A DNA stretch of 64,000 bases from an uncultured Candidatus Rokubacteria bacterium (GCA_963841755.1 CAWJDX010000010.1:73808-137807), one strand, 5' to 3'. Shown: positions 7,793-62,623, numbered from the stretch's first letter. Numbers and translations: made by a program. Notes: generated from the sequence alone by a model not told the origin.

Positions 7793-7793
<1 letters not shown>
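7708..7793. repeat. REP-like palindromic element, family A (27-bp perfect inverted repeat, 32-nt spacer) at a convergent gene junction
   Basis: GGGGTCAGGTCTTACATTCCGACATTT (7708-7734) is the exact reverse complement of 7767-7793. The outer 17 bp recur at 21336-21375. Confidence 0.85.
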
Positions 7794-9209
<1,416 letters not shown>

Positions 9210-9213
<4 letters not shown>

Positions 9214-10371
9214 GTCGAGGCGGGGACCGCGACCGCCGGCTCCCGGAGGCCGCAGATCTCGTAGAGCGTCTGGCGCTGGCGGATGCCCTTGAGGTGCGGC
9301 CGGCCGAGCTCGCGGGCGTCGACGAGATGATTCACCTGGTTGAAGGTCTCCTCGCCCACGATGATATGCGCGTCGAAGAGGCGTGTCATCCGCTGCATTC
9401 GCGACGCCGCGATCATCGCGCGGCCCACCACGATGAGCTCGCGCCGGCGGTCCGAGCCGATCGTCCCCGCCAGCACCCGGCCGGAGCTGATGCCGATCCC
9501 GATGTCGAAGGTGGGCCGCCCGTCGGCGGTCCAGCGCGCGGCCAGCCGCCGCACCGCCTCCACCATGTCGGCGGCGGCCCGGACCGCCCGCAGCGCGACG
9601 TCGGCCCCCGGCTCCGGGACGCCGAAGAGGGCGACGATCTCGTCGCCGACCAGCTGCTCCACCGTGCCCTGGTGGCGGAAGATCACGTCGATCATCTCCG
9701 CGAAGTACTCGTTGAGGAGCTGGATCACCACCGGGGCGGTCGTCGACTCGATGAGGCGGGTGAAGCCGCGGATGTCCGCGAAGAGCACGGTGGCCTCGCG
9801 CCAGTCGCCCGGCAGCTCCAGGATGCCGGGATTGGCCACCGCGAGGTCGACCAGCCGGGGCGACACGTAGCGCTGGAGCTGCGAGCGCACCGACGCCTCG
9901 CGGATCAGATCGTCCTGGGCGTCCGCGCAGGTGGGTCAGCGCCTGCTCCAGCTCGACGTTCTTGGCCGCGAGGTTCCCCAGGAGCGTCTCGCGCTCCCGG
10001 CACAGCCGGTGGTGCTCGACCGCCCGGCCCACCACGTGACGGAGCTCGTTCGGATCCCACGGCTTCAGCAGGAAGTGGTAGACCCCGGCCGCGTTGATGG
10101 AGTCCATCAGGGCGTCGGTGTCGGTGAAGGCGGTGAGGAGGATGCGGACCGTGTCGGGCGCCACGTCGCGGCTCCGGGTCAGGAGCTCGGTGCCGGTCAG
10201 CCCGGCCATCCGCTGGTCGCTCACCACGACCGCCACGTCCTCCTCGCGGAGGTGGCGGAGGGCGATCTCCGGGCGCTCCGCGCGCAGGATGCGGTGCTCC
10301 ATCGCGAGGAGCGCCTCGAGCGCGTCGAGGACGCGCGGCTCGTCGTCGACCAGGAGGACGGTGGCGGGCAT
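9210..10371 (-). CDS. Response-regulator receiver fused to a class III adenylate/guanylate cyclase domain, one apparent frameshift near 9905-9935
   Basis: REC: [12 protein letters not shown]…[12 protein letters not shown]…KPWD. Cyclase domain in ORF 9210..9890: …[12 protein letters not shown]…[10 protein letters not shown]…[15 protein letters not shown]…. Confidence 0.8.
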
Positions 10372-12654
10372 CAGGGACTCGCGGGGCGGCGGCGGGCGTC
10401 GCCTCGGTGGGCTTGCCGGCCCGGGCGACCGGCAGCCGCAGGGTGAACACCGCGCCGCCGCTCGGGCGGGCTCTCGGCCCGGATCTCGCCGCCGTGCTTG
10501 GTGACGATCTCGTAGCTGATCGAGAGGCCGAGCCCGGTGCCCTCGCCGACCGGCTTGGTGGTGAAGAACGGATCGAAGACGCGGCGGAGCACGTCGGGCG
10601 GGATGCCGGGGCCGGTGTCGGCGATGGCGATCACCGCCATCGGGCCCTCCCGGCGGCGTCTCGATCGTGATCGTGCCGGGCCCCGGGATCGCCTGGGCCG
10701 CGTTGGCGAGCACGTTCAGGAAGACCTGGTCGATCTGCGACCGGACGCACTCGACCGGGCCGAGCGCGCCGTACTTGCGGATCACCGTGACCCGATCCTT
10801 CAGCAGGTGGTTCAGGAGGGTCAGGCTCGACTCGAGCTCCTCGTGCAGGTCGACCGCCTGCCACACGTCGTCCGGGGTGCGGGTGAAGACCCGCAGGTCG
10901 CCGACGATCTTGCGGGTCCGGTCGGCGCCCTCGCGGATGCCGGAGATCATCGAGTCGAGGTACCGGAGCGCGTAGTCGACCTGGAGCTCCCGCCGGCGCG
11001 CGTCGATCCGGGCCCGGTCCGCCTCGGGCAGCGCGGCCTCCTGGTAGGTCTCGAGCATGGCCCGCAGGCGCTGGACGAAGTCGGCGAGCGTGGCCACGTT
11101 GGAGGAGATGAACCCGATGGGATTGTTGAGCTCGTGGGCCACGCCGGCCACGAGCTGGCCGACCGAGGCCATCTTCTCGCGCTGGATGAGCTGCAGCTGC
11201 GTGGCCTGGAGGTCGCGGTAGGCGGTCCGCAGCTCCTCGTTGGCGGCCCGGAGCTGCTCGGTGCGGACCCGCACCTTGTCCTCGAGGCTCCGGGAGAGGT
11301 CCTCGATGGTCTGGAAGCTCTGCGGCCCGGTCGATGGCGAGGGCCACGTGGCTGGCCACCGCGGTGAGCAGGTCCACGTCGCCCTGATCGAAGCGTCCCG
11401 CCTCCGTCGCGGTCACCGCGAGCACTCCGAGCACCTGCTCGCGCACGCGGAGCGGCGCCGCCACGAGGCTCCGCACCCGATGCGCGCGGCTCAGCGCCCG
11501 GTGCACCGGCTCGGTCGCCGTCTCCACGTCGTTGACGAGCACCGGCTGCCCGGTGATCGCGGCCCGCGCGCTCGCGCTGGTCGCCGCCTCGAGCGGCAGC
11601 TCGACGCCCTCGAACGGAGGCGGCGTCGGCGTCGGCGCCCGCGGCTCGGTGCCCGCGGAGCACGCGGCGCTCGCGGTCCACCAGGAGCAGGTAGGCCCGC
11701 TGGTACGGCATCCGGTGGACGAGCCGGCTCAGCGCCTGGTCGTAGATCTTCTCCGGGTCGAGCGTCCCGCTCACCGCGGCGCTCAGGTCGGTGAGGAGCG
11801 AGAGCTGCTCGATCCGCGTCTCGAGCTCGACGAACTTCTTCTCCAGCTCGCGGTTCGAGTAGATGATCTCCTCGGACTGCAGATCGAGCAGGCGCTGGGT
11901 GTGGCGGCGCTGCTGGCCCTCGCGGAGGGCGTAGCCGAGCGCGACGCCGGCGAGGAGCGGCAGCGGCGCCGCGGCCAGGAGCGGCCAGCCCCCGCCGGGG
12001 GTCGCGGCGACCAGGCCGAGGAGGACGGCGGCGCCGCCGCCGATCAGGCTCGGCGCCCAGAAGCGGACCCCCCGCGACGGGTTCTTCCAGCGGACGTCCC
12101 AGCGGCAGGCGTCGGCGACCGCGGGCCGCGCACGTGCTCTCGAGGATGCGGGCGCGCGGCAGTCCCCAGTTGGTCGGGAAGCGCTCGAACTGGACCTTGC
12201 GCCACGTGCAGCTCCAGACCGGAATGGCCTGCCCGGGCACCGGCGTCCAGCGGTAGCGGGCGTGGCGGCGGCCGACCTCGAGGACGTCGAGCCGGAAGAG
12301 GCCGCGGCTCTGCTGCTCGTAGATGGTGGCCACCCGCTGGTAGGCCGCGCGCGGGCTGCCGATGCCCATGGAGTAGGTGCCGAGATAGGAGCGCTCCTCG
12401 CGGGGCTTCCAGTCCATGAAGGACTCGCCGTAGCGCCGCGCCCAGCGGTCCTCGTCGGGCTCGTGCATCAGGTCCTGGCAGACCGCCACCATCTCGCTGG
12501 CCACCGCGAGGGGAATCCAGTTGTGGTCGGCCATGAGGTAGTCGCGCGACCGCCCCGCGACGCGGCAGATCGTCGCGACCCCCTCGGGGCCGACCTCCTT
12601 CTCCACGAAGGGGATCAGCGCCTTCGTGAAGATGCAGTTGATCTCTCCCGGCAT
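10371..12654 (-). CDS. Sensor histidine kinase (V4R-like N-terminal domain, 2 TM helices, coiled coil, GAF, HisKA, HATPase_c), at least 5 apparent frameshifts
   Basis: Pieces lie in at least 5 frames. They are: [22 protein letters not shown]…[10 protein letters not shown] / …[10 protein letters not shown] (V4R-type E-x2-C-x3-G-x3-C-x-W end); [15 protein letters not shown]…[11 protein letters not shown] (TM); GAF …[12 protein letters not shown]…LGVLAVT…; HisKA …[19 protein letters not shown]…; HATPase …IADTGPGIP…[16 protein letters not shown]…. Confidence 0.75.
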
Positions 12655-12699
12655 CTCCGGCCGCTCAGCTCCGCTTGTGCACGAACGTCGACGTGATCT

Positions 12700-13227
12700 T
12701 CACGGGTTCGCGAGGGTATCGGCCACCGGCGACTTCCGGTCGATCGTCTCCTTGCATCGCCGCACCTGCTCCTCGGAGGCCGGGCTCTGGATGGTGACCG
12801 TGTAGCGGATGTCGGTGAAGCCGTTGCGCACCGACTTGTCGTGCCCGAGCACGCCGCGGAAGTCGATGTCGGCCTCCAGGTCCACGCTCAGGGCGTCGAT
12901 GGGCACGTTGAACAGGGCGGCGTTGGCCGCGATCCCCGAGGTGATGCAGCCCGCGAGGGCGGCCAGCAGCGTCTCCGCGGCGGTCGGCGCCGCGTCCACG
13001 CCGCCCAGCCCGGCCGGCGCGTCCATCGTGACGAAGAAGCGTCGCGTCGGGGGTGTCGCCACCTTGCCGAGGATCTCCTGGGTTCCGATCTCGACCAGGG
13101 CCTTGACGCCGCGCTGCCAGGTGGAGCGGAGCTTGACGGTGCGCTTCCCGAGCGCGGGATTCTCGCGGACCTTGCGGTCCATTTCCTTCATGCCGTCGAG
13201 GTCGACGTCGTTCAGTCCGAGTGCCAT
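12700..13227 (-). CDS. OsmC-family peroxiredoxin-like protein
   Basis: Intact 175 aa with OsmC-like …PTAAETLLAALAGCITSGIAANAA…. GAGGAGG lies upstream of the ATG. Confidence 0.85.
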   Translation of the reverse strand: MALGLNDVDLDGMKEMDRKVRENPALGKRTVKLRSTWQRGVKALVEIGTQEILGKVATPPTRRFFVTMDAPAGLGGVDAAPTAAETLLAALAGCITSGIAANAALFNVPIDALSVDLEADIDFRGVLGHDKSVRNGFTDIRYTVTIQSPASEEQVRRCKETIDRKSPVADTLANP

Positions 13228-13291
13228 TGGTGTCCTCCTCTGAGGTTGCGAATGTTCCAGGTCGAGCGTTGGCGCCGGGTGTCGACGGCGC

Positions 13292-15374
13292 TCAACGCCT
13301 TGCTCCGTCCAGCAGCGGCGCGATCAGCGCGGCGGCCCGGCGGGCCCCGTCGGTCTCCACGTCCCGGTAGGCCACCGGGCGCTTGAGCCCTTCGGCCACC
13401 GCGTGCGCGAGCGTCTCCGGATCGGCTTCCGCATAGTCCATGCGCACCCCCGCGCCGTAGCGAGCGAGCCGATGCGGCACGTGGACGCTCTGCTCGAAGT
13501 GGCGCCGCAGCGGGAAGTAGATGAATGGCCGCCGGGTCGCGGTCAGCTCCATGCAGGTGCTGAGACCGCCCTGCACGATCGCGAGGTCGCACCCGGCCAG
13601 GTGGCCGTACAGATCGGGCACGAAGCTCCGGTACTCGACGCCCGGCGTCGGCGGGAGCGCGGCGGGGTCGATCCGCGGCCCGGTGACCACGATCAGCCGG
13701 AGATCGGGGACGCGCTGCCTCATGTGCGGGAATGCGGCCACGACCTTCCGCAGCAGGTGCCGGCCGACCGCGGTCCCGCCCACCGCCGCGAGGACGACCC
13801 GCTCGTCGGCCCGGAACCCGAGCCGCGCCGCAGGCCGTCGCGGTCCGCGAACTCGGCGGGGTCGAAGGGCAGGACGTAGCCCGGGAAGTCGTAGTGCGCG
13901 CCGGTCCACTCCCGGATGCCGGGGAGTCCCGGCCCGAAGGGGCGATCCACCACGTCGTCGCGAGATCCACGAAGAGGGCCCGGTCCCGGACACGGGGAAA
14001 GCGCGCGACCTGCTCGATCATCTCGGTGTTGTAGTCGGCGGCGAGCCGCGCCTCGGAGGAGGCGGGATCGCCGTCCACCGGCAGCCAGCCCACGAAGTCG
14101 GTGAGCCAGGCGAACGCGGTGCGCTTCAGCTCCGGGTTCTCGTGGAGGTAGTAGTCGGTCTCCCAGGCCTCGTCGCCGATCACGAGGTCGTGGGGCTCGG
14201 CCTCCAGCACGTCGTGCAGCACCATGAAGTTGGCGAGCAGGATCTCGTCCATGTTCCGCCAGGCTGGAACACGTGGAGGTCGTGCTCGCCCGCCTCCGAC
14301 TCGATGTGGGCGGACTCCCCGCCAGGAGCCGGCTCGCGGGATGGACCGTCTCGCTCGCGCCTCCAGGACCCGCGTGACCGGGTCCTGGGCGAGCCACTGG
14401 ATCTCGAGGTCGGGCTGGAGCAGGCGCAGCTCGCGGGCGATCGCCACGTCGCGCAGCGAATGGCCGAGCCGATCGGGCTCGAGACGATGAGCGCGCGCCG
14501 CGGCCGGGTCATCGCCCGGCGCCAGGGCCGTCGCGCGGGCGCCGGCGGATCCAGGAAATCGCGGACGGCCAGGTTGTAGCGAACCGGATCGCGGACCTGC
14601 GGGCAGTGCCCCGACCCCTCGAAGGGCATGAGCACCGACCCCGCGATGGCGGCGTGCGCGCGCTCGGCCAGCCGGAACGGCCGCACCGCGTCCTTCGTGC
14701 CGTGGATGATGAGGGTGGGCGCGTGGATCCGGGCCAGCAGGTCGGCGGCCGAGGACCGGCACGACCACTCGCGGGCAGTCGCGATGAGGACCTCGGGCGT
14801 GGTGCCGAGCGCCCACGCGAGGCCGTCCTCCCGGGCCTTCGACGAGTGCGGCTCCGTGAAGGTCTGGGCCATGAAGAACTCGAGGAACTCGCGGTAGTGC
14901 GCGCGCCAGTAGTGGGCGTTGTACTTGTTCCACCCTTCGTAGTGGTCGCGCGGCTCGAGGAAGCCCGGGGGGATCTGGACCTCGTCGTCGACGGTGGTGG
15001 CGGTGAGGACCAGCCGGTCGACGCGCGCGGGGTGCTGCGCGGCCAGGATGGCGCCGGGCCAGGTGCCGCGCGAGAGGCACACGAGCGACGCCCGCTCGAC
15101 GCCGGCCGCGTCCAGGACCGCGCGGGTGTGATCGGCCATGCGGTCGTGGTCGTACCCGGTCGCCGGCCGGTCCGAGCGCCCGTTGCCCGGCGGGTCGAAG
15201 GTCAGCGTCCGGAAGTAGCGGGCGAAGTAGGGCACCTGCAGCTTCCAGACCCGGCTGTCGACGATCTGCCACGGCGGGAGGAAGAGGACCGCGCGGGGGC
15301 CGCGGCCGTGCTCTCCAGAAGATCCGGACGCCGTGCGACTCCACGTGGCCTTCGCGGTCCGGCGCGCGCCGCAA
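13292..15374 (-). CDS. Alpha/beta-hydrolase::glycosyltransferase fusion, paralog 2, heavily frame-disrupted (about 8 or more indels)
   Basis: Collinear with the intact upstream paralog but scattered over 3 frames. Pieces: MRRAPDREGHVESHGVRIFW / …LFLPPWQIVDSRVWKLQVPYFARYFRTLTFDPPGNGRSDRP… / …SSPIG LGHSLRDVAIARELR… / …RADERVVLAAVGGTAVG…LAIVQGGLSTCMELTA…. Confidence 0.7.
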
Positions 15375-15387
15375 CGGATTGGGTCCT

Positions 15388-17457
15388 CTACAGCAGCCCG
15401 GCGATGAGCCGCGCGGCGCGATCGGTGCCGTCGAGCGGCACCTCTGCGGAGTGGACCGGCTTGCCGAGGTGCTCGAGCATCACGGCGCCGAGGACCTCGG
15501 GGCTGGTGTGATCGTAGTCGAGGCGCACCCCCGCGCCGAGGCGATCGAGGCGCCGGGCCACGTGCAGCTGCTGCTCGAAGTGATGGCGGAGCGGGAAGTA
15601 GATGAAGGGGGTACGGAGAGCGGCCAGCTCCATGGTGGTGGTGAGCCCGCCCTGGACGATCGCGAGATCGGCCGCCGCGTGGTGCTCGAAGAGATCGGGG
15701 ACGAAGGCGCGCACCTCGACCCGCGGCCCCAGGTTCGTCTCCAGCTCGGTGAGCCGCGGGCCCCCGACCAGGATCAGGCGGGCCTCCGGGATCTGGGCCG
15801 AGATCATGGCGAAGGCCTCCGCGCACTTGCGGAGCAGGCTCCGCCCGACGCGCGTTCCTCCGACGGAGGCCAGGATCACGCGCTCGTCGGCCCGGTAGCC
15901 GAGCTTCACCCGCAGGGCCGCGCGATCGCGCAGGGCCCGGGGATCGAAGTGGAAGGTGTAGCCGGAGAACCGGAAGTGCTCCCGCGCCCACTGCCGCATG
16001 TTCGGCAGATCGGGGCCGAACTCGCGGTCGAGCACGTCGTCCTCGTCGCCGACCAGGATCGACAGGTCGCGCACGTCGGGATGCAGGCGCAGGTGGTCGA
16101 CGTTCTCCGCGTTCTTCTCCCAGCAGCGGATGAACTCGGTGGAGGTCCGGTCCTCCCGCATCGGGAGCAGGCCGATGAAGTCGGTGAGGAAGGCGTAGGG
16201 GGCCCGCTTCAGGTCGGGGTTCTCGTGGAGGAAGTAGTCGAGGTCCCACCCCTCGTCGCCGACCCACAGGTCGTACCGCTCGCGCTCCACCACGTCGGCG
16301 AGGGTCATGAAGTTCGCGGTCATGATCTCGTCCATGTCCCACAGCGCGTTGAACGCGTGCAGCTCGTGATCGGCGGCCCAGCCCTCGAAGTGCGTGGTCT
16401 CGTTCTGGAGCAGGCGGGTGGCCGGGTGCAGGCGCTCGCCCCAGTGCTGGACGACGCGATCCGCGGGGTCGCCGGCGAGGAAGTCGACCACGACGTCCGG
16501 ATCGAGCGCGCGCAGCCGCCGGGCGATCGCGAGGTCGCGCTGGACGTGCCCGAGCCCGATGGGGCTCGAGAGCCAGAGCACGCGCCGCCGGCTGTCCCGC
16601 GGGGCCCGGCGGGGCGCCGGGGGCGGGTCGGCCGCGGGCACCGTCCGCTCGGTGGTGGGCGGGATCGTGGCCTCCGCGACCTCCTGCCCGAGCGCGAAGT
16701 CGCGGATGAGACGGTTCACCTTCACCGCGTCGCGGCCGAACAGGCCGTGGCCGCCGCGCGCGAAGGTGACCAGGCGGGCGCCGGGGATCGCCGCGACCAT
16801 CTTCTGGGCGTGCGAGTAGGGGACGATCTTGTCGTTGGTCCCGTGCAGGGCCAGGGTGGGCACCCGGAGCTGGCCGAGTAGCTCGTGCACGTCGATGCCG
16901 TCGATCGCGCGCAGCGACTCGATCAGGACCTCGGGGGTGGTCTCGCCGGCCCAGGTCACGCAGTCCTCGATCCCCTTGAGCGAGTGCGGCTCCGGGAAGA
17001 TGCGCTTGAAGAGGCGCGTCCGCCAGTTGTCGAAGTCGTCGCGGATCACCCGCGCGACGCGCTCCTCGAACGGCTGCGGCACCGATTCGGCGTACTGGCC
17101 GGAGAGCAAGATCAGGTGCGAGAGCCGGTCCGGATGGGCAACCGCGTAGCGGAACGCGAGCGGGGCCGCGCACGAGAACGCGACCAGGGCGATGGGCGGC
17201 CGCGCGACCTCGTCGAGGACGGCCATGAGGTCGCCGTACCGCGTGTCCAGGTCGTAGCCGGTGGGCGGCCGGTCGGATCGCCCGTTGCCGCGCGGGTCCA
17301 TCGTGATCACGCGGAAGTAGCGCGACAGGTACGGGATCTGGTGCTTCCACATCCGGCTGTACGTCACGACCTGACACTGGGGCAGCAGGACCAGATCGCG
17401 GGTCCCGCTGCCGGTGACCTGATAGAAGATGCGCGCGCCCGGCCGGTGAACGTACAT
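15388..17457 (-). CDS. Alpha/beta-hydrolase::glycosyltransferase (GT-B, MurG/GT28-C/Glyco_trans_1_3-like) fusion, paralog 1, intact
   Basis: Start at MYVHRPGARIFYQ (aa 48 of ORF 15388..17598) with GGAG upstream. Hydrolase half: …MDPRGNGRSDRP…HGTNDKIVP…GGHG…. GT half: …LSSPIGLGHVQRDLAIARRL…ILASVGGTRVG…LAIVQGGLTTTMELAA…. Confidence 0.8.
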   Translation of the reverse strand: MYVHRPGARIFYQVTGSGTRDLVLLPQCQVVTYSRMWKHQIPYLSRYFRVITMDPRGNGRSDRPPTGYDLDTRYGDLMAVLDEVARPPIALVAFSCAAPLAFRYAVAHPDRLSHLILLSGQYAESVPQPFEERVARVIRDDFDNWRTRLFKRIFPEPHSLKGIEDCVTWAGETTPEVLIESLRAIDGIDVHELLGQLRVPTLALHGTNDKIVPYSHAQKMVAAIPGARLVTFARGGHGLFGRDAVKVNRLIRDFALGQEVAEATIPPTTERTVPAADPPPAPRRAPRDSRRRVLWLSSPIGLGHVQRDLAIARRLRALDPDVVVDFLAGDPADRVVQHWGERLHPATRLLQNETTHFEGWAADHELHAFNALWDMDEIMTANFMTLADVVERERYDLWVGDEGWDLDYFLHENPDLKRAPYAFLTDFIGLLPMREDRTSTEFIRCWEKNAENVDHLRLHPDVRDLSILVGDEDDVLDREFGPDLPNMRQWAREHFRFSGYTFHFDPRALRDRAALRVKLGYRADERVILASVGGTRVGRSLLRKCAEAFAMISAQIPEARLILVGGPRLTELETNLGPRVEVRAFVPDLFEHHAAADLAIVQGGLTTTMELAALRTPFIYFPLRHHFEQQLHVARRLDRLGAGVRLDYDHTSPEVLGAVMLEHLGKPVHSAEVPLDGTDRAARLIAGLL

Positions 17458-18481
17458 CAGTCGTTTCTCCTCGAGGGGAGCGGATGGGCCAGCGGCCCGG
17501 GCGATCGCGCCGCGCCATCTCGTAGAGGACCAGCGCCGCGCCGCCGCGCACGGTGGCGCGCTTGTCGGCCGGCACCACGCGAACCGTCGTCGCGTCAAGC
17601 GTGGCGCCGAGCCCCCGGCGCCGGGCCCGGCGCAGGATGTCGTCCTGCAGCGGAGCCAGTGACGTGGCCACCCCGCCGGTGATCAGGATGACCTCCGGGT
17701 TCAGCAGGCTCACGAGCGCCCCGATGCCCATCGCGAGGGCCTCGCAGGCCTCGTCGACCACCACCCGCGCGAGGGGATCGCCGGCGGCGGCCTCCTCGAA
17801 CAGGAGCGGCGCGGCGATGCGCGCCGGATCGCCGCCGGCCCGCGCCAGCAGCGACGAGCCCGGGTAGGCCGTGAGCCGGTCCCTCGCCCGGTCCGCCATC
17901 ATGGCCCCCGCCACGTAGGTGGCCAGGCATCCGATGCTGCCGCAGAGGCAGCGCGGGCCGGTGAGGCTCACGCTCATGTGGCCGATCTCGCCCGCGCTGT
18001 GGTCGTGCCCGCGGACGAGGCGGCCGTCCAGGATCAGGCCGGCGCCCATCCCGGTGCCGATGGCCACCGTGACCAGCGAGGCGGCGCCCCGGCCGAGCCC
18101 GAACGTCCACTCGCCCAGGGTGAGCGCGTTCACGTCGTTGTCCACGAAGACGGGATGCCCGCTGCGGTCCTGGATGAGCGCGGCGAGCGGCACGTCGCCC
18201 AGCTCGGCGAGCCAGGCGAACGCCAGCGAGCGCATGGATCCCTTGTCGACATCGACCAGGCCGGGCAGGCCGACCCCGATCCCGGACACGCGAAGGCCCC
18301 GGTCCGCGGCGGCGGAGAGGGCGCGATCGATCAGCATGAAGATCGTGTCGACGGCCCCGCGGCCGCCCTGGGTCGGGGCCTGGGCGGCGACGAGCACGGT
18401 GCCGTCGAGGTCGACGAGCCCGGCCGAGATCGTCGAGGCTCCGACGTCCACTCCGACCACCGGATCGCTCAGGATCATCAT
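17457..18481 (-). CDS. ROK-family protein (sugar kinase-like), frameshift near the 3' end
   Basis: MMILSDPVVGVDVGASTISAGLV…DNDVNALTLGE…GHMSV…CLCGSIGCLATY (ROK Zn motif). The in-frame stop is missing. A TGA overlapping the next ATG (TGATG at 17455-17459) is reached only after a shift. GGAGG lies 6 nt upstream of the ATG. Confidence 0.8.
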
Positions 18482-18495
18482 GCGGCCTCCTCAGC

Positions 18496-18510
18496 GCAAG
18501 GCCTGTGCCA
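18496..18510 (-). promoter_or_regulatory. Candidate sigma-54 (-24/-12) promoter of the ROK/GT-fusion/OsmC operon
   Basis: The minus strand reads TGGCACaggccTTGC, an exact match to the TGGCAC-N5-TTGC core, 15 nt upstream of the ATG at 18481. Confidence 0.5.
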
Positions 18511-18553
18511 GCGCGGAAACCCGCTCAATATCGAGATCCACCCGGCGCGGGCT

Positions 18554-18568
18554 GCAAGGCGACCTTGC
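18554..18568. promoter_or_regulatory. 15-bp palindrome GCAAGGCGACCTTGC, candidate activator (UAS) site
   Basis: Perfect 6-3-6 inverted repeat centred about 52 bp upstream of the -24 GG of the minus-strand sigma-54 motif. A near-identical copy lies at 18808-18822. Confidence 0.4.
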
Positions 18569-18807
18569 GGAGCCGGCGCTCCCGCGCGGCAAGAGCCCGT
18601 CGACGCAGGGCGCCCGGCCCGCAAGCTGACATGGCGGGGCGTCCGGTCGAGCGTGCAAGGTCGCGATGCCCCGCGGCCGCCCGGCGGCGTCCAGCCGGTC
18701 CCCCTGCCGTCTGCTCTTGCGCGTGCATGGTCTCGAGGCGCCACGTCAGCTTGCGTTGCCAAGGTCGCGAAATCAAGCGCAGGCGGATCGCGGCGCCTCG
18801 ATCCGGC

Positions 18808-18822
18808 GCAAGGCGATCTTGC
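18808..18822. promoter_or_regulatory. 15-bp palindrome GCAAGGCGATCTTGC, candidate activator (UAS) site
   Basis: One-nt variant of the 18554-18568 site, centred about 50 bp upstream of the -24 GG of the plus-strand sigma-54 motif. Confidence 0.4.
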
Positions 18823-18863
18823 TTCCGCCGACGCAATCACCTGGAATTTCGCGGGTCGCCGCG

Positions 18864-18879
18864 GGGCACGGCGCTTGCT
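18864..18879 (+). promoter_or_regulatory. Candidate sigma-54 (-24/-12) promoter of the cupin/hydrolase/methyltransferase operon
   Basis: gGGCACGgcgcTTGCt: GG and GC have correct spacing and every core position except the first T matches. It lies 69 nt upstream of the ATG at 18948. Confidence 0.45.
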
Positions 18880-18947
18880 CGCCGACGGCGTGGCGCCGTG
18901 GCGCCCGAAGCGAACCCGCCCACCCCAACGAACAAGGAGAACCGAAC

Positions 18948-19412
18948 ATGCGTCGCATCGTACTCGCGCTCCTGATGCTCACCGCTCTCGTCGCACCTCC
19001 CGCGCACGCCCAGACGCACGGGCACATCGTCGTCCTGCCGGACACCCTCAAGTGGGTCGAGCCCGCGCCGCTCCCGGGGGCCCTGCTCGCGGTGATCCAC
19101 GGTGACCCGAGCAAGGAAGGGCCGTTCGTCTATCGGCTCAAGATGCCGGCCGGCTACAAGATTCCCGCGCACCTGCACAAGGCGAGCGAGAACGTCACCG
19201 TACTCTCCGGGGTGTTCTTCATCGGTCTCGGCGAGAAGCTCGACCAGGGCAAGGGAGAGGAGCTGCCGACCGGGGCTTTCTTCTCGGTGCCGCCGGATCA
19301 TCCGCACTACGCGTGGGCGGGCCGCGGCGAGACGATCGTGCAGGTGCACGGCGTGGGCCCGACCGATCTGCGGTTCGTGAATCCAGACGACGACCCGCGG
19401 AAGAAGAAGTAG
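18948..19412 (+). CDS. Secreted cupin-domain protein
   Basis: MRRIVLALLMLTALVAPPAHAQ signal peptide with AAGGAG 9 nt upstream. Cupin-like …YKIPAHLHKASENVTVLSGVFF…PPDHPHYAWA…. Confidence 0.75.
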   Translation: MRRIVLALLMLTALVAPPAHAQTHGHIVVLPDTLKWVEPAPLPGALLAVIHGDPSKEGPFVYRLKMPAGYKIPAHLHKASENVTVLSGVFFIGLGEKLDQGKGEELPTGAFFSVPPDHPHYAWAGRGETIVQVHGVGPTDLRFVNPDDDPRKKK

Positions 19413-19414
19413 CC

Positions 19415-20221
19415 ATGGCCACGATGACGCCCACCCGGGCGTACGTCCGCGAGGTGGGCACCGGCCCGGCCGTCGTCTGCATCCACGCGAGCGCCAGCTC
19501 CTCGGCGCAGTGGCGGCCCTTGATGGACCATCTGGCCGAACGCTTCCGCACGCTGGCGGTCGACCTCTACGGCTCCGGCCGGAGCCCCCGCTGGCCCGAG
19601 GATCGGCCGCTATCGCTGGCGGACGAGGTGGCCCTGCTCGAGCCGGTCCTCGCAGAGGCCGGCGAGCGGTTCCACGTGGTCGGCCACTCGTACGGCGGCG
19701 CGGTGGCGCTCAAAGCCGCGCTCGCCGATCCCGGCCGCCTCCGCTCGCTGGTCGTGTTCGAGCCGGTGCTGTTCTCGGTTCTGTTATCCGAGGATCCCAC
19801 CCAGCCCGCCGCGCGCGAGATCGTGGCGGTGCGCGACGACACCGTCGCCGCGGTGCGCATCGGGGACCCGCACGGATCCGGCGCGCGGTTCCTCGACTAC
19901 TGGATGGGAGCCGGCGCCTGGGCCGCCATGCCGGAGCTGCGGCGCGCCGCGGTGGCCACCGCGATGGGCGGCGTGGCCGCGGAATGGCACGCCGCGTTCA
20001 CGGAAGAGGCGCCGCTCTCGTCGTTCGCGTCGCTCGACGTGCCGACCCTCTTGCTCACCGGCTCCGACTCGCCGGAGTCCTCCCGAGGCGTGGCCCGGCT
20101 GCTGACGAAGGCCCTGCCGCGCGTGAGCGCGGTCGAGGTCGCGGGGGTGGGGCACATGGGCCCCGTGACCCACCCGGAGCGGATCAACGCGCTGATCGAG
20201 CGCCACCTCGACGCGCACTAG
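19415..20221 (+). CDS. Alpha/beta hydrolase
   Basis: Starts 3 nt after the cupin stop. Contains HVVGHSYGG (G-x-S-x-G elbow) and a C-terminal GHMGP. Confidence 0.85.
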   Translation: MATMTPTRAYVREVGTGPAVVCIHASASSSAQWRPLMDHLAERFRTLAVDLYGSGRSPRWPEDRPLSLADEVALLEPVLAEAGERFHVVGHSYGGAVALKAALADPGRLRSLVVFEPVLFSVLLSEDPTQPAAREIVAVRDDTVAAVRIGDPHGSGARFLDYWMGAGAWAAMPELRRAAVATAMGGVAAEWHAAFTEEAPLSSFASLDVPTLLLTGSDSPESSRGVARLLTKALPRVSAVEVAGVGHMGPVTHPERINALIERHLDAH

Positions 20222-20268
20222 CGGCAAACCCAACTCGAAGGGCCGATCGGCCCGGAAGGAGACACACC

Positions 20269-21330
20269 ATGGCACCCGAGCAGGCGACGCTGGATCCAAA
20301 CAAAGTGAACGAGTTTCTTGGCAAGGCGATCTCGGATGTGGCGGCCACGTTCCACGCAGGCCTCGTGCTCATCGGCGACAAGCTCGGTCTGTACCGGGCG
20401 ATGGCCGGCGCCGGCCCGCTGAGCCCGGCGGACCTGGCCAAGCGCACCGGCACCCGCGAGCGCTACGTGCGCGAGTGGCTGTCCGCGCAAGCCGCGGGCG
20501 GCTACGTCACCTACGAGCCGGCGACCGGCCGCTTCACGCTGCCGCCGGAGCAGGCGTTCCTGATGCTCGACGCGGACTTGCCGGGGGCGTTCCAGCTCAG
20601 CGTCGGCTCGGTGCGCGACGAGCCGCGGATCTCGGACGCGTTCCGGACCGGCGCCGGCGTGGGCTGGCACGAGCACGACACCGGAGTGTACGAGGGCTGC
20701 GAGCGGTTCTTCCGCCCCGGCTACGCCATGAATCTCGTCAGCCAGTGGATCCCCGCGCTCGAGGGGGTGAAGGCGCGGCTCGAGGTGGGCGGCCGGGTCG
20801 CCGACGTGGGCTGCGGCCACGGCGCGTCCAGCATCATCATGGCGCAGGCGTTCCCCCGCACGACCGTCACCGGCTTCGACTACCATCCCGCGTCCATCCA
20901 GGCCGCGCGGCAGGCGGCCGACAAGGCCGGGGTGGGGGACCGGCTGTCGTTCGAGGTGACCGCGGCCAGGGACTACCCGGGCAGCGGCTACGACCTGGTC
21001 ACCTTCTTCGACTGCCTGCACGACATGGGCGATCCGGTGGGCGCCGCGCGCCAGGTGCGGCAGTCGCTCGCCCCGGGCGGGGTCTGGATGCTGGTGGAGC
21101 CCTTCGCCAACGACCGGCTGGAGGACAATCTCAACCCGGTCGGCCGTCTCTACTACGCGGCGTCGACCCTGCTCTGCACGCCCGCGTCGCTCAGCCAGGA
21201 GGTGGGGCTCGCGCTCGGCGCGCAGGCGGGGGAGAAGCGGCTCCGTGAGGTGCTGACCGAGGCGGGATTCACGCGGATCCGGCGGGTGGCCCAGACCCCC
21301 GCGAACATGGTCTTCGAAGTCCGCGTGTAG
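20269..21330 (+). CDS. Class I SAM-dependent methyltransferase with N-terminal winged-helix-like dimerisation region
   Basis: VADVGCGHGAS (motif I) and DLVTFFDCLHDM. GGAAGGAG lies upstream of the ATG at 20269. Confidence 0.85.
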   Translation: MAPEQATLDPNKVNEFLGKAISDVAATFHAGLVLIGDKLGLYRAMAGAGPLSPADLAKRTGTRERYVREWLSAQAAGGYVTYEPATGRFTLPPEQAFLMLDADLPGAFQLSVGSVRDEPRISDAFRTGAGVGWHEHDTGVYEGCERFFRPGYAMNLVSQWIPALEGVKARLEVGGRVADVGCGHGASSIIMAQAFPRTTVTGFDYHPASIQAARQAADKAGVGDRLSFEVTAARDYPGSGYDLVTFFDCLHDMGDPVGAARQVRQSLAPGGVWMLVEPFANDRLEDNLNPVGRLYYAASTLLCTPASLSQEVGLALGAQAGEKRLREVLTEAGFTRIRRVAQTPANMVFEVRV

Positions 21331-21380: not shown

Positions 21381-22523
21381 TTACTTGATCAGGCCGTAGA
21401 AGCGGCCCGCGTTCTCGCAGGTCATCTTGTGCATGACCTCGGCGGGCAGGTGGCCGAACTGCTCGGCGATGTACTTGGAGGAATCGGGCCAGACGCCGTC
21501 GCCGTGCGGGTAGTCGGAGCCCCACATCAGTGTCTCGACACCCATGTCGTCGATCAGCTTGGTGCCGATGCGGTCGAACTGGAAGGTCGCCTTGCACTGC
21601 CGCCGCCAGTAGTCGCTCGGCTTCATCTTGAGCCCGAGGTCGGTGAAGCGGTCCTCCCACTCGAAGTCCATGCGGTCGAGCGCGTAGGGCACCCAGCCGA
21701 TGCCGGATTCGCCGAAGGCGATGCGCACGTTCGGATAGCGCTCGAGCACCGCGGCCCCGATGATCGCGGCCAGGATGTTGACCAGGTTCATCTGAAACGC
21801 GGAGACCACCGTGAAGAACGCGGCGCGCCGGGTGAGCCCCTTCTGCTTCTCCAGCACGTTGGGCGGCAGGGCCGGGAAGGTGTGGAAGTGGAGCGGCAGG
21901 TTGACGTCGTTGACCGCCTTCCACAGCGGCTCCCACGTCGGATGCCACATCGGCTCCATGTCCCACGAGCAGGAGAGCTCCATGCCACGCAGGCCGAGCT
22001 TGGCCACCCGGTAGACCTCCTGCACCGCGGCGTCGATGTCGCCGTAGGGCAAGCACGCGAGGCCGATGAAGCGGTCCGGGTCGTGGCGGCAGAAGTCCAC
22101 CAGCCAGTCGTTATAGATGTGGAACATCTCGGTGGCCGCCTCGTGGTCGTTCAGCCGGGTGGCCGCGCCGAGGATGCCGTAGATGACCTCGGCCTGCACG
22201 CCGTCGCGGTCCATGTCCTTGGCCCGCAGCGCCGGAGTGGTCGGCCGGGCGACCCCCTTCTTGCCATCGTCGTAGAGACCGGTCGCCGCCATCACGTCCA
22301 CGCGGTGGTGCTTGCCGGCCTCGTACTTGGAGCCGGCCGGCCCCACGCCGCCCCACAGGCCGAAGCTGGTCCCGTTCTTCGCTGTCCAGTAGGGCCCGTC
22401 GGGCCCATCCTTGACGTAGGGCATGCGGTCCTTCAGTGGTGCCGACGCGTTGGCGGTGAACAGATCGGGCGGGATCCAGGGCAGGTCGATGTGGCAGTCG
22501 GCGGAGATCCGTTGGTAGCGCAT
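21381..22523 (-). CDS. Amidohydrolase-2 family protein (PF04909/ACMSD-like metal-dependent hydrolase/decarboxylase)
   Basis: Start chosen at MRYQRISADCHIDL (aa 19 of ORF 21381..22577). Motifs: …SADCHID…, …LHFHTF…, …MWGSDYPHGDG…. Confidence 0.85.
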   Translation of the reverse strand: MRYQRISADCHIDLPWIPPDLFTANASAPLKDRMPYVKDGPDGPYWTAKNGTSFGLWGGVGPAGSKYEAGKHHRVDVMAATGLYDDGKKGVARPTTPALRAKDMDRDGVQAEVIYGILGAATRLNDHEAATEMFHIYNDWLVDFCRHDPDRFIGLACLPYGDIDAAVQEVYRVAKLGLRGMELSCSWDMEPMWHPTWEPLWKAVNDVNLPLHFHTFPALPPNVLEKQKGLTRRAAFFTVVSAFQMNLVNILAAIIGAAVLERYPNVRIAFGESGIGWVPYALDRMDFEWEDRFTDLGLKMKPSDYWRRQCKATFQFDRIGTKLIDDMGVETLMWGSDYPHGDGVWPDSSKYIAEQFGHLPAEVMHKMTCENAGRFYGLIK

Positions 22524-22624
22524 GGGGCCCCCTTTCGCGTGTGGAGAGAGCCTAGCCACCGGCGGGGGCGTCGTCAAGTTGCCTTGACTCGGGCTCCCGC
22601 CCGCGGCACCATGCCCGGGCCGCC

Positions 22625-23820
22625 ATGCTCCAGGGCATCCGCGTCCTCGATCTCTCCCGCGTCATCGCGGGGCCCTACTGCGCGGCCCTCCTGGGCGACC
22701 TGGGCGCCGACGTGATCAAGCTGGAGCGGCCCGGGCGCGGCGACGACCTGCGCTCCTTCCGGGGCGACGGCCAGATGAGCGCCTCCTTCGCGGCGGTGAA
22801 CCGCAACAAGCGCGGCATCGCGGTGGATCTGCAGAAGCCGGAGGGCGTGCGCCTGGTCTTCGAGCTGGCGCGGCGCGCCGACGTGGTCGTCGAGAACTTC
22901 CTGCCCGGCGTGGCCGAGCGGCTCGGGCTCGGCTACGCCGGCGGTCCGCGCGGTCAATCCCGCGGTGGTCTACGCGTCGGTCACCGGCTTCGGCCAGACC
23001 GGCCCGCTCGCGCGCAAGCCCGGCTACAACACGATCGCCCAGGGCATGAGCGGGCTCATGGCGCTCACCGGCATGCCCGGCGCATCCGCCGACGCGCGTG
23101 GGCGGCTCGGTCTCCGACGTGGCGGCGTCCTACATGGCGTTCGGCATGGTCAACGCGGCGCTCGTGCACCGCTTCCGCACCGGCGAGGGCCAGCACGTGG
23201 ACGTGAGCCTGGTCTCGGCGAGCCTCGGGCTCCTGCCCGATCCGGTCGCGATCTACTTCGATACCGGCGAGCGGCCGATGCGCGCGGGCAACCGCAACCT
23301 GAACCTCTCGCCCGCGGAGGCCTTCCAGGCCGGCGACGGCTTCGTCAACGTGGTGCTGCTGAACCCGGATCAGTGGGGCCGCTTCTGCGCCGCGCTCGGC
23401 GATGCGGCGATGGAGACGGACCCGCGCTTCGCCACCAATCCCGCGCGGCTCGCGAATCATGCCGCGTTCAAGGCGCGGGTGGAGGCCATCCTCGGCACCG
23501 GCTCCGCCAAGGAGTGGGTCGCGCGTCTCGAGGCGGCCGGCATCGCGGCGGGGCCGATCTACGAGTTCGACGAGGTGTTCGAGGATCCGCAGGTGCGCTA
23601 CCTCGGGCTCGTGGCCGAGGTGGAGCAGCCCGGCGCGGGCAAGGTGAAGATGCTGACGTTTCCCGGCCGCGCCTCCGCGACGCCGCCGCGCATCGACCGC
23701 CCGGCGCCGCTGCTCGGCCAGCACACCGCCGAGGTGCTCGGCGAGCTCGGGCTCTCGCGCGAGGAGATCGACCGCCTCGCCGCGGCCGGCGTGATCGTGC
23801 TGGGAGAGCAGCCCGCCTAG
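22625..23820 (+). CDS. Family III CoA-transferase (CaiB/BaiF-like), two apparent frameshifts (about 22945 and 23090)
   Basis: Spread over three frames: MLQGIRVLDLSRVIAGPYCAALLGDLGADVIKLERP…; …VVYASVTGFGQTGPLARKPGYNTIAQGMSGLMALTG…; …VSDVAASYMAFG…GPIYEFDEVFEDPQV…. Confidence 0.85.
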
Positions 23821-61567: not shown

Positions 61568-61583
61568 AGCATGCGCTGTGCCA
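61568..61583 (-). promoter_or_regulatory. Candidate sigma-54 (-24/-12) promoter of the repeat lipoprotein gene
   Basis: The minus strand reads TGGCACagcgcATGCt (one core mismatch, T to A at -14). The -12 GC lies 28 nt upstream of the ATG at 61540, leaving room for the GGGAGG RBS. Confidence 0.45.
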
Positions 61584-62607: not shown

Positions 62608-62623
62608 TGCAGCGATCGTGCCA
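62608..62623 (-). promoter_or_regulatory. Candidate sigma-54 (-24/-12) promoter of the small-membrane-protein/USP operon
   Basis: The minus strand reads TGGCACGatcgCTGCa (matches TGGCACG-N4-TTGCW except one T to C), about 97 nt upstream of the GTG at 62511. Confidence 0.5.

Follow-up and report, generated by a model that had tools for sequence, protein, structure and literature searches.

In a 64,000-nt stretch of DNA from an uncultured Candidatus Rokubacteria bacterium (GCA_963841755.1, CAWJDX010000010.1:73808-137807; 72% G+C), hereafter called the window, we analyzed the intergenic region between two divergent operons, one headed by a gene for a ROK-family sugar kinase (ROK operon) and the other by a gene for a small secreted cupin (cupin operon). 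The region (positions 18482-18947, 465-466 bp) most probably carries two outward-facing sigma-54 promoters, one for each operon, which would be served by an NtrC-type activator that is encoded in the ROK operon and acts at palindromic sites within the region. This is a known kind of switch, and a well supported one, which is found here in a phylum where it was previously not described; a literature search on sigma-54/RpoN in Rokubacteria or Methylomirabilis found nothing relevant. Its unusual traits are a promoter that is fused to the start codon of its operon and a conserved dyad array of half-sites. Rokubacteria, uncultured soil bacteria with large genomes, are abundant, and to our knowledge there is no experimental knowledge of transcription control in this group.

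An initial annotation, made from the window sequence, had placed two divergent sigma-54 promoters and two copies of a palindrome in this region, and the motif sequences were confirmed at these places, where chance does not account for them. The ROK promoter TGGCACaggccTTGC on the minus strand matches the consensus TGGCAC-N5-TTGC exactly, with the GG doublet at 18509-18508 and the GC doublet at 18497-18496. The core of the cupin promoter, GGGCACggcgcTTGC (18864-18878, plus strand), reads GGGCACG-N4-TTGC and has one mismatch, a G for the first T. In both promoters the GG and GC doublets are exactly 10 nt apart, and the two motifs point outwards to the ROK and cupin genes, respectively. The exact core TGGCAC-N5-TTGC occurs once in the window, compared to 0.03 occurrences expected from dinucleotide-preserving shuffles (the initial annotation had estimated 0.1). 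With one mismatch there are four matches in the window and 3.1 expected, a number that taken alone is not significant. The palindrome cores GCAAGGCGACCTTGC (18554-18568) and GCAAGGCGATCTTGC (18808-18822) are centered 52.5 bp from the center of the ROK-side GG and 50.5 bp from the center of the cupin-side GG, respectively. Matches to GCAAGGCGAYCTTGC with at most two mismatches were found eight times in the window, where 0.53 were expected, and three of these eight are located within the control region.

For the comparative analysis, 10 orthologous loci from metagenome-assembled genomes (MAGs) of Methylomirabilota/Rokubacteria were collected by similarity to the window ROK protein (64-85% identity), a range in which its relatives come exclusively from Candidatus Methylomirabilota/Rokubacteria MAGs. 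Since the loci were chosen by protein similarity, there was no selection for DNA motifs. Together with the window, this gave 11 regions, which were aligned with MAFFT and yielded 98 invariant columns among the 466 intergenic positions. At the ROK promoter, all 10 positions of TGGCAC and TTGC are invariant in 11/11 regions, while none of the five spacer columns and none of the 14 columns before the ATG is. At the cupin promoter, GGCACG and TTGCTC (6 + 6 positions) are likewise invariant in 11/11 regions, together with one of the five spacer columns. Palindrome 1 (GCAAG-N5-CTTGC) is exact in 10 of the 11 regions with a variable N5, and its consensus extends to TGCAAG-N5-CTTGCA. The proposal of a bidirectional sigma-54 control region with a dedicated activator operator held up in all comparative tests that were available, among them the invariance of both -24/-12 pairs next to variable spacers and flanks.

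The last gene of the ROK operon encodes the candidate activator. The initial annotation had pointed to the product of 7793-9213, which indeed belongs to the NtrC family of bacterial enhancer-binding proteins (bEBPs) and is syntenic with the promoter-palindrome module. It matches the Pfam families Response_reg, Sigma54_activat, AAA_lid_14, and HTH_8 and contains the GAFTGA motif. Its structure matches include NifA, ZraR, and NtrC1, with ZraR (1ojl, E = 3e-80) among the best. None of the NCBIfam equivalogs could be assigned to it, as the best one, AtoC, reached 366 bits against a cut-off of 714 and all others (e.g. NifA, NtrC, ZraR, NorR, GlrR) were also below their cut-offs. The window copy needs two frame corrections; the copy in L090 is intact. 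A search with the repaired activator yielded six relatives with 74-88% identity, all of them Rokubacterial, and five of the six are located in an intact cluster reaching from the ROK gene to the kinase gene. The activator gene is syntenic with the module in L090, L091, and L094 and with the cluster in L092 and L093; the cluster is also present in L013, L021, L041, L047, and L051, which include distant ROK loci. In L091, GCAATGTAGCCTTGC is followed by TGGCAT-N5-TTGC and then by 19 nt to the ATG, and L094 carries TGCAAGCCCACCTTGCA with an indel-damaged -24/-12 pair. Because the activator gene is syntenic in nearly every locus that is long enough to show it, the operon-encoded NtrC-type protein is the likely binder of the palindrome.

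The sigma factor itself was found in the phylum. In the MAG SMAG_U8709, a 485-aa open reading frame (ORF) on contig DATEDO010000153.1 (L249) was detected by means of an RpoN-box DNA pattern, and its product is a full-length RpoN with Sigma54_AID, CBD, and DBD domains. The gene follows an lptB-like gene, and the same MAG has the module upstream of its ROK homologue (L041). A tblastn search with an E. coli RpoN query against the collected loci and the 64-kb window gave no match, and the window contains no rpoN; this search was superseded by the RpoN-box scan. The initial annotation had counted a lack of rpoN against sigma-54 control, and this concern is removed for the phylum by SMAG_U8709.

In order to follow the co-occurrence of palindrome and promoter, which the initial annotation had suggested to look for, 185,579 species genomes were scanned with the composite pattern GCAAG-N5-CTTGC, N36-48, KGGCAC-N5-TTGC. 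The scan returned 79 loci, about 28 of them from Methylomirabilota/Rokubacteria. All Rokubacterial matches precede a ROK homologue (47-85% identity), a cupin orthologue, or the gene directly upstream of ROK, and ROK homologues down to 47% identity still head the same hydrolase-glycosyltransferase (GT)/OsmC/kinase cluster. Palindrome-promoter co-occurrence is phylum-restricted and, within Rokubacteria, is found only ahead of this gene set. Four cupin orthologues that are not linked to ROK (L015, L035, L050, and L073) have their own GGGCAC-N5-TTGC promoter and palindrome, the palindromes of such stand-alone loci being exact and at the matching distance, and therefore the module is a portable unit. 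In 357 kb of Rokubacterial DNA, TGGCA[CT]-N5-TTGC was found only at the modules and at one other site. The palindrome-to-promoter spacing has a 5-nt range over the 28 modules, and in 27 of them TGGCAC has a purine as its next base, which fits the extended consensus; since these modules were collected by pattern, the positions fixed by it carry no weight.

Two MAGs have an extra gene between the module and ROK or with a module of its own, namely L043 (1873-3581), where it encodes a secreted TPR-like protein, and L047 (1772-3443), where it encodes a di-haem cytochrome c peroxidase-like protein and where two modules lie 1.9 kb apart. The composite pattern also recurs in several species each of Nitratidesulfovibrio/Desulfovibrio (L065, L067, L076, L081), Ancylobacter (L061, L074, L087), and Roseomonas (L049, L066, L088). 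Three of the Desulfovibrionaceae loci (L067, L076, and L081) have a bEBP gene no more than a few kb away. These non-Rokubacterial loci may represent unrelated sigma-54 modules with a similar operator.

The two palindromes are part of a larger array. In the 466 bp, 11 copies of the pentamer GCAAG/CTTGC were counted, where 0.69 were expected (Poisson P = 2e-10), and the maximum in any other 466-bp stretch of the window is four. On the plus strand, GCAAG is present at 18496, 18554, 18589, 18621, and 18655 and CTTGC at 18716, 18750, 18818, and 18874, with the remaining palindrome halves at 18564 and 18808. The elements are arranged symmetrically about a mirror axis at 18687.5, with half-sites at +/-31 and +/-65, palindrome centers at +/-127, and -12 boxes at +/-189. 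The arms of a 17-nt inverted repeat (18620-18636/18739-18755), which are 94% complementary, form the +/-60 sites; 10 of the 17 columns of the left arm are invariant, and in L007/L008 this arm is the perfect palindrome GCAAGGTCGCCTTGC. The half-palindrome at 18655-18669 has two mismatches to the palindrome. The array offsets are kept within 1-2 nt in nine genomes, where the GG-to-GG distance is 357-361 bp. In L007/L008 this distance is 273 bp, about eight helical turns less, with an intact array half on the ROK side. Read on the ROK strand, the -12 CTTGC is preceded by co-oriented CTTGC half-sites at distances of 58, 93 (18589-18593), 125, and 159 nt, which are spaced about three helical turns apart. 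The initial annotation had described half-site direct repeats near 18655 and 18760. They are present, as CAAGGTCGCGA at 18656-18666 and 18760-18770, but only part of them is conserved, and the dyad array of GCAAG/CTTGC describes the region better. The inner sites might be weaker activator sites that aid oligomerization. A further sequence one mismatch away from the 17-bp palindrome consensus, TGGAAGGTCGCCTTGCA at 21580-21596, is located within a highly conserved amidohydrolase gene; owing to its coding position and the lack of a -24/-12 motif nearby, it was rejected as a control site and is probably due to chance.

The same array bears on the question of which protein occupies the sites. It could be that the sigma-54 promoters are real but that the sites are bound by another protein, such as a bEBP whose gene is located in another place, a repressor, or an architectural protein wrapping the approximately 33-bp-periodic array, which we regard as rather unlikely. 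Co-oriented CTTGC half-sites every 33 bp or so could suit a wrapping, Lrp-like protein just as well. In addition, the block 18756-18782 is conserved yet unlike the palindrome and holds the sole A/T-rich invariant motif of the region, ATCAAG (CTTGAT on the ROK strand), and two further sigma-54-like promoters in the window (see below) would imply more activators in the genome. Against another binder, the activator gene accompanies the module in every long-enough locus, distant ones included, except for the rearranged L095; the 17-bp TGCA-N9-TGCA layout is that of NtrC-type sites bound by Fis-type helix-turn-helix (HTH) domains; and the sites are located upstream of the promoters and not over them, which fits activation rather than repression.

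An explanation of the conserved blocks as a structured non-coding RNA or leader, for which the length of the region (465 bp), its many conserved blocks, and the ability of GCAAG to pair with CTTGC could be adduced, is extremely improbable. The covariation term of RNAalifold for the nine inter-promoter regions was unfavorable (+2.96 kcal/mol), and structured RNA was therefore rejected; the predicted pairs consist of the invariant pentamers, and the conservation takes the form of sequence blocks whose spacing is fixed, while variation is confined to positions beyond them. Rfam gave no relevant match, neither with E <= 1 over 17500-20000 nor at the gathering score over the whole window, and a tRNA scan of the sequence found none.

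On the ROK side, the promoter is located unusually close to the gene. Only 14 nt (gctgaggaggccgc) separate the -12 box from the ROK ATG at 18481, and the length of this segment is invariant in all 11 genomes, while its sequence is free; in distant ROK loci the distance amounts to 14-24 nt. A passage in PMC2831329 describes the conserved elements of sigma-54 promoters as lying around -24 and -12. By this usual geometry the ROK transcript is predicted to start at about 18484, 2-3 nt before the ATG, which is the sole conserved ROK start codon, a downstream GTG being peculiar to the window. This points to a ROK leader that is very short or absent. GGAG or GAGG is present 5-10 nt before the ROK ATG in just 5 of the 11 orthologues. 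Unlike on the ROK side, the Shine-Dalgarno core CTCC (GGAG on the coding strand) of the cupin gene is invariant. The distance from the cupin motif at 18864-18878 to the ATG at 18948 is 69 nt, and the cupin transcript is predicted to start at about 18890, with a 5' untranslated region of about 58 nt and an AAGGAG Shine-Dalgarno sequence. The initial annotation had raised the near-leaderless ROK transcript as a caveat, and with the invariant 14-nt spacing it turns into a conserved feature rather than an objection. A literature search returned no described sigma-54 promoter with a near-leaderless arrangement, and we know of none with a -12 box this near to a start codon. The locus is a natural test object for the question of leaderless translation of sigma-54 transcripts. 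In the window, a tandem duplication, GTGGCGCC GTGGCGCC, at 18890-18905 starts exactly at the predicted cupin start and is absent from the orthologous regions.

The closeness of motif and start codon also brings up the possibility that the -24/-12-like motifs are merely additional sites of a CTTGC-recognizing factor and that the genes are transcribed from unrecognized sigma-70-type promoters. This would agree with the CTTGC of the -12 box, which is identical to the palindrome half-site, with the window GGAGG, which falls outside a transcript starting so near to the ATG, and with the GGAG/GAGG found before the ATG in the five orthologues. It is very improbable nonetheless, as at both ends TGGCAC or GGGCAC is separated from TTGC by exactly 5 nt, faces outwards, is invariant in 11 genomes, and has a purine immediately after it. 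Furthermore, the operon encodes a GAFTGA activator, which is able to act only on sigma-54, and rpoN was found in the phylum. No sigma-70-like promoters or intrinsic terminators were found in scans of the region; the promoter scan was limited to E. coli-type hexamers and may have missed a sigma-70 start.

Several points weigh against the reading of the region as a pair of sigma-54 promoters under the operon-encoded activator. A ROK start about 3 nt before the ATG would leave the window GGAGG untranscribed, and upstream activating sequences (UASs) at about -76 are nearer to the promoter than most characterized enhancers. In the adjacent-gene orthologues palindrome 2 is weakly conserved (0-3 mismatches), and it is deleted in L007/L008. 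A site for the integration host factor between UAS and promoter was considered and yielded partial matches only, e.g. ATCAGCGGGTTT in L001, so that no claim is made for it. The rearranged L095 (8154-10810) has no module upstream of its ROK homologue (45% identity), and there a partial hydrolase-GT gene is followed directly by a truncated activator homologue that matches only residues 188-472. The evidence for rpoN, coming from SMAG_U8709, is on the level of the phylum rather than of the window's own genome. Finally, frameshifts, due to either sequencing error or decay, disrupt the window copies of both activator and kinase. Split reading frames occur in the window at 7793-9246 (three frames), 10431-12693, 13295-15343, and 22574-23817 (CoA-transferase), and the ROK ORF lacks a stop codon and stays open as far as 14180. 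As intact orthologues of broken window genes exist in other MAGs (the activator in L090; ROK including its stop codon in L001, where it ends after 346 aa), the frameshifts are probably indel errors, as from long-read assembly; they may alternatively reflect real pseudogenes or decay. The spacings of the control region are corroborated by short-read MAGs.

Put together, the preferred reading would work as follows. In response to a presumed signal, the GAF histidine kinase would phosphorylate the NtrC-type activator, whose gene comes last in the ROK operon. Activator dimers would then bind the 17-bp sites TGCAAG-N5-CTTGCA, centered about 76 bp upstream of each predicted start, and probably also the weaker half-palindromic sites further in. 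The activator would form an ATPase ring and remodel the closed sigma-54 holoenzyme complex at each promoter, and the ROK mRNA would be translated nearly leaderless. Because the activator gene is located inside one of the two operons, we propose that the circuit is positively autoregulated. A bolder version holds that the ROK promoter is built for an obligatorily leaderless mRNA or one with a leader of <=3 nt, and that the array of about 380 bp is a single enhancer-like assembly that fires both promoters in a coupled manner, rather than two independent UAS-promoter pairs, so that the two traits would jointly constitute a distinct design. An obligate leaderless design would explain the invariant 14-nt length despite the free sequence; as a whole, we consider this version conceivable but doubtful.

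Among known systems, the region comes closest in its layout to the divergent zraP/zraSR units of E. coli, an autoregulated system with an exported partner protein and with ZraR binding between the two units (PMC8249747). Here too, a candidate activator target is located in the spacer of two divergent units, of which one contains a two-component system and the other starts with a gene for a small exported protein. Only the layout is shared, since a cupin takes the place of ZraP as the exported protein, the kinase combines a GAF domain with an unknown N-terminal domain, and the Rokubacterial activator, at 325 bits, stays below the ZraR equivalog cut-off of 760. The putatively regulated genes also differ (sugar kinase, hydrolase-glycosyltransferases, OsmC-like protein, methyltransferase), and the region is longer, with a dyad array that comprises as many as eight or so sites and with one promoter that abuts the start codon.

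A second comparison is offered by the classical sigma-54 enhancer, that of NtrC at glnAp2, which consists of 17-bp inverted repeats, TGCACC-N5-GGTGCA, with strong sites at -108 and -140. The Rokubacterial sites share with it the 17-bp inverted repeats with an outer TGCA (here TGCAAG-N5-CTTGCA), the arrangement of strong and weak sites about three helical turns apart, and a response regulator of the receiver (REC)-AAA+-Fis-HTH type. Unlike at glnAp2, the half-site is another one, the strongest site is nearer (about -76), and two promoters would be served symmetrically; at 350 bits, the activator also falls short of the NtrC equivalog cut-off (559). No protein here is orthologous to those of the zra or NtrC systems. 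With canonical sigma-54 promoters the region shares TGGCAC-N5-TTGC, the 10-nt distance of GG and GC, and an upstream-bound AAA+ activator, here a putative one; it differs from them in that on the ROK side only about 3 nt are expected between start and ATG. The canonical TGGCAC-N5-TTGC logic extends to the Rokubacterial phylum, and the locus offers a complete circuit, comprising a promoter pair, an operator, a candidate activator with its kinase, and a small regulon, which is amenable to a heterologous host. The features are compiled in Table 1.

Table 1. Features of the control region and of the two flanking operons (window coordinates).
Feature	Position	Strand	Remarks
Sigma-54 promoter of the ROK operon, TGGCACaggccTTGC	18496-18510	-	exact TGGCAC-N5-TTGC consensus
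Partly conserved block, AGCGGGTTTCCGCGC	18511-18530	-	adjoins the ROK -24 box upstream
Palindrome 1, candidate activator site (UAS), TGCAAGgcgacCTTGCg	18553-18569	.	center 18561, about -77 from the predicted ROK start
GCAAG half-site between palindrome 1 and inner sites	18589-18593	.	exact in 7/11 regions, 1-3 mismatches in the others
Inner site, left arm of 17-nt inverted repeat, CGCAAGCTGACATGGCG	18620-18636	.	GCAAG half-site and degenerate second half
Conserved block with half-palindrome GCAAGGTCGCGATGC (18655-18669)	18651-18672	.	innermost ROK-side site; 14/22 columns invariant
Conserved block with CTTGC 18716-18720	18700-18732	.	mirror partner of GCAAG 18655; absent in L007/L008
Inner site, right arm of 17-nt inverted repeat, CGCCACGTCAGCTTGCG	18739-18755	.	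mirrors 18620-18636 about 18687.5
Conserved block, TTGCCAAGGTCGCGAAATCAAGCG	18756-18782	.	13/27 columns invariant, L007/L008 included
Palindrome 2, candidate UAS of the cupin promoter, cGCAAGgcgatCTTGCt	18807-18823	.	center 18815, about -75 from the predicted cupin start
Sigma-54 promoter of the cupin operon, gGGCACGgcgcTTGCTC	18864-18880	+	GGCACG 18865-18870, TTGCTC 18875-18880
ROK-family sugar kinase	17560-18481	-	first gene of operon; Pfam ROK E = 3e-49; window copy without stop codon
Alpha/beta-hydrolase and GT28-type glycosyltransferase fusion	15388-17460	-
Frameshifted paralogue of the hydrolase-GT fusion	13295-15343	-	downstream of the first copy
OsmC-like protein	12700-13323	-
Sensor histidine kinase	10431-12693	-	unknown N-terminal domain, 2 hydrophobic helices, GAF-HisKA-HATPase
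Receiver domain and adenylate/guanylate cyclase domain	9210-10434	-	gene missing from L090
NtrC-family enhancer-binding protein	7793-9246	-	REC, AAA+ with GAFTGA, Fis-type HTH; last in ROK operon
Cupin operon	18948-21330	+	three genes
Small secreted cupin, signal peptide	18948-19412	+	Cupin_2/Cupin_7
Alpha/beta hydrolase	about 19403-20221	+
Winged HTH-S-adenosylmethionine (wHTH-SAM) methyltransferase	about 20251-21330	+

Among the genes of the ROK operon, the ROK protein matched the NCBIfam glucokinase subfamily of ROK proteins under the cut-off. It lacks an N-terminal HTH and is therefore taken to be a kinase and not a regulator. In the window, the histidine kinase gene is distributed over several frames; L090 has an intact copy (L090 4366-6627), which encodes 753 aa. 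For the first 190 or so residues of this sensor, which are rich in Cys, His, and Trp and precede the two hydrophobic helices and the GAF domain, no Pfam family was matched. The hydrolase-GT fusion gave weak NCBIfam matches to macrolide esterases and macrolide glycosyltransferases, far under the cut-off, which hints at a role in small-molecule modification.

Some further motifs were encountered. The block at 18511-18530 is a candidate bending or architectural site. Two sequences in the inner blocks, GGGCAT-N7-TTGC and GCCAT-N6-TTGC, were ruled out as extra sigma-54 promoters because of wrong spacing or a missing GG. Outside the region, two sigma-54-like motifs were found on the minus strand. 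The first, TGGCACgatcgCTGCa (62609-62623), is followed after about 95 nt by a GTG that has an AAGGAG Shine-Dalgarno sequence, and the second, TGGCACagcgcATGC (61569-61583), precedes a lipoprotein-like gene (MNRAIQRS...LLGGC), with 28 nt to its ATG. The two motifs are located between genes in the correct orientation, each has one mismatch in the -12 T, and neither is preceded by a GCAAG palindrome, which suggests a wider sigma-54 regulon with other activators.

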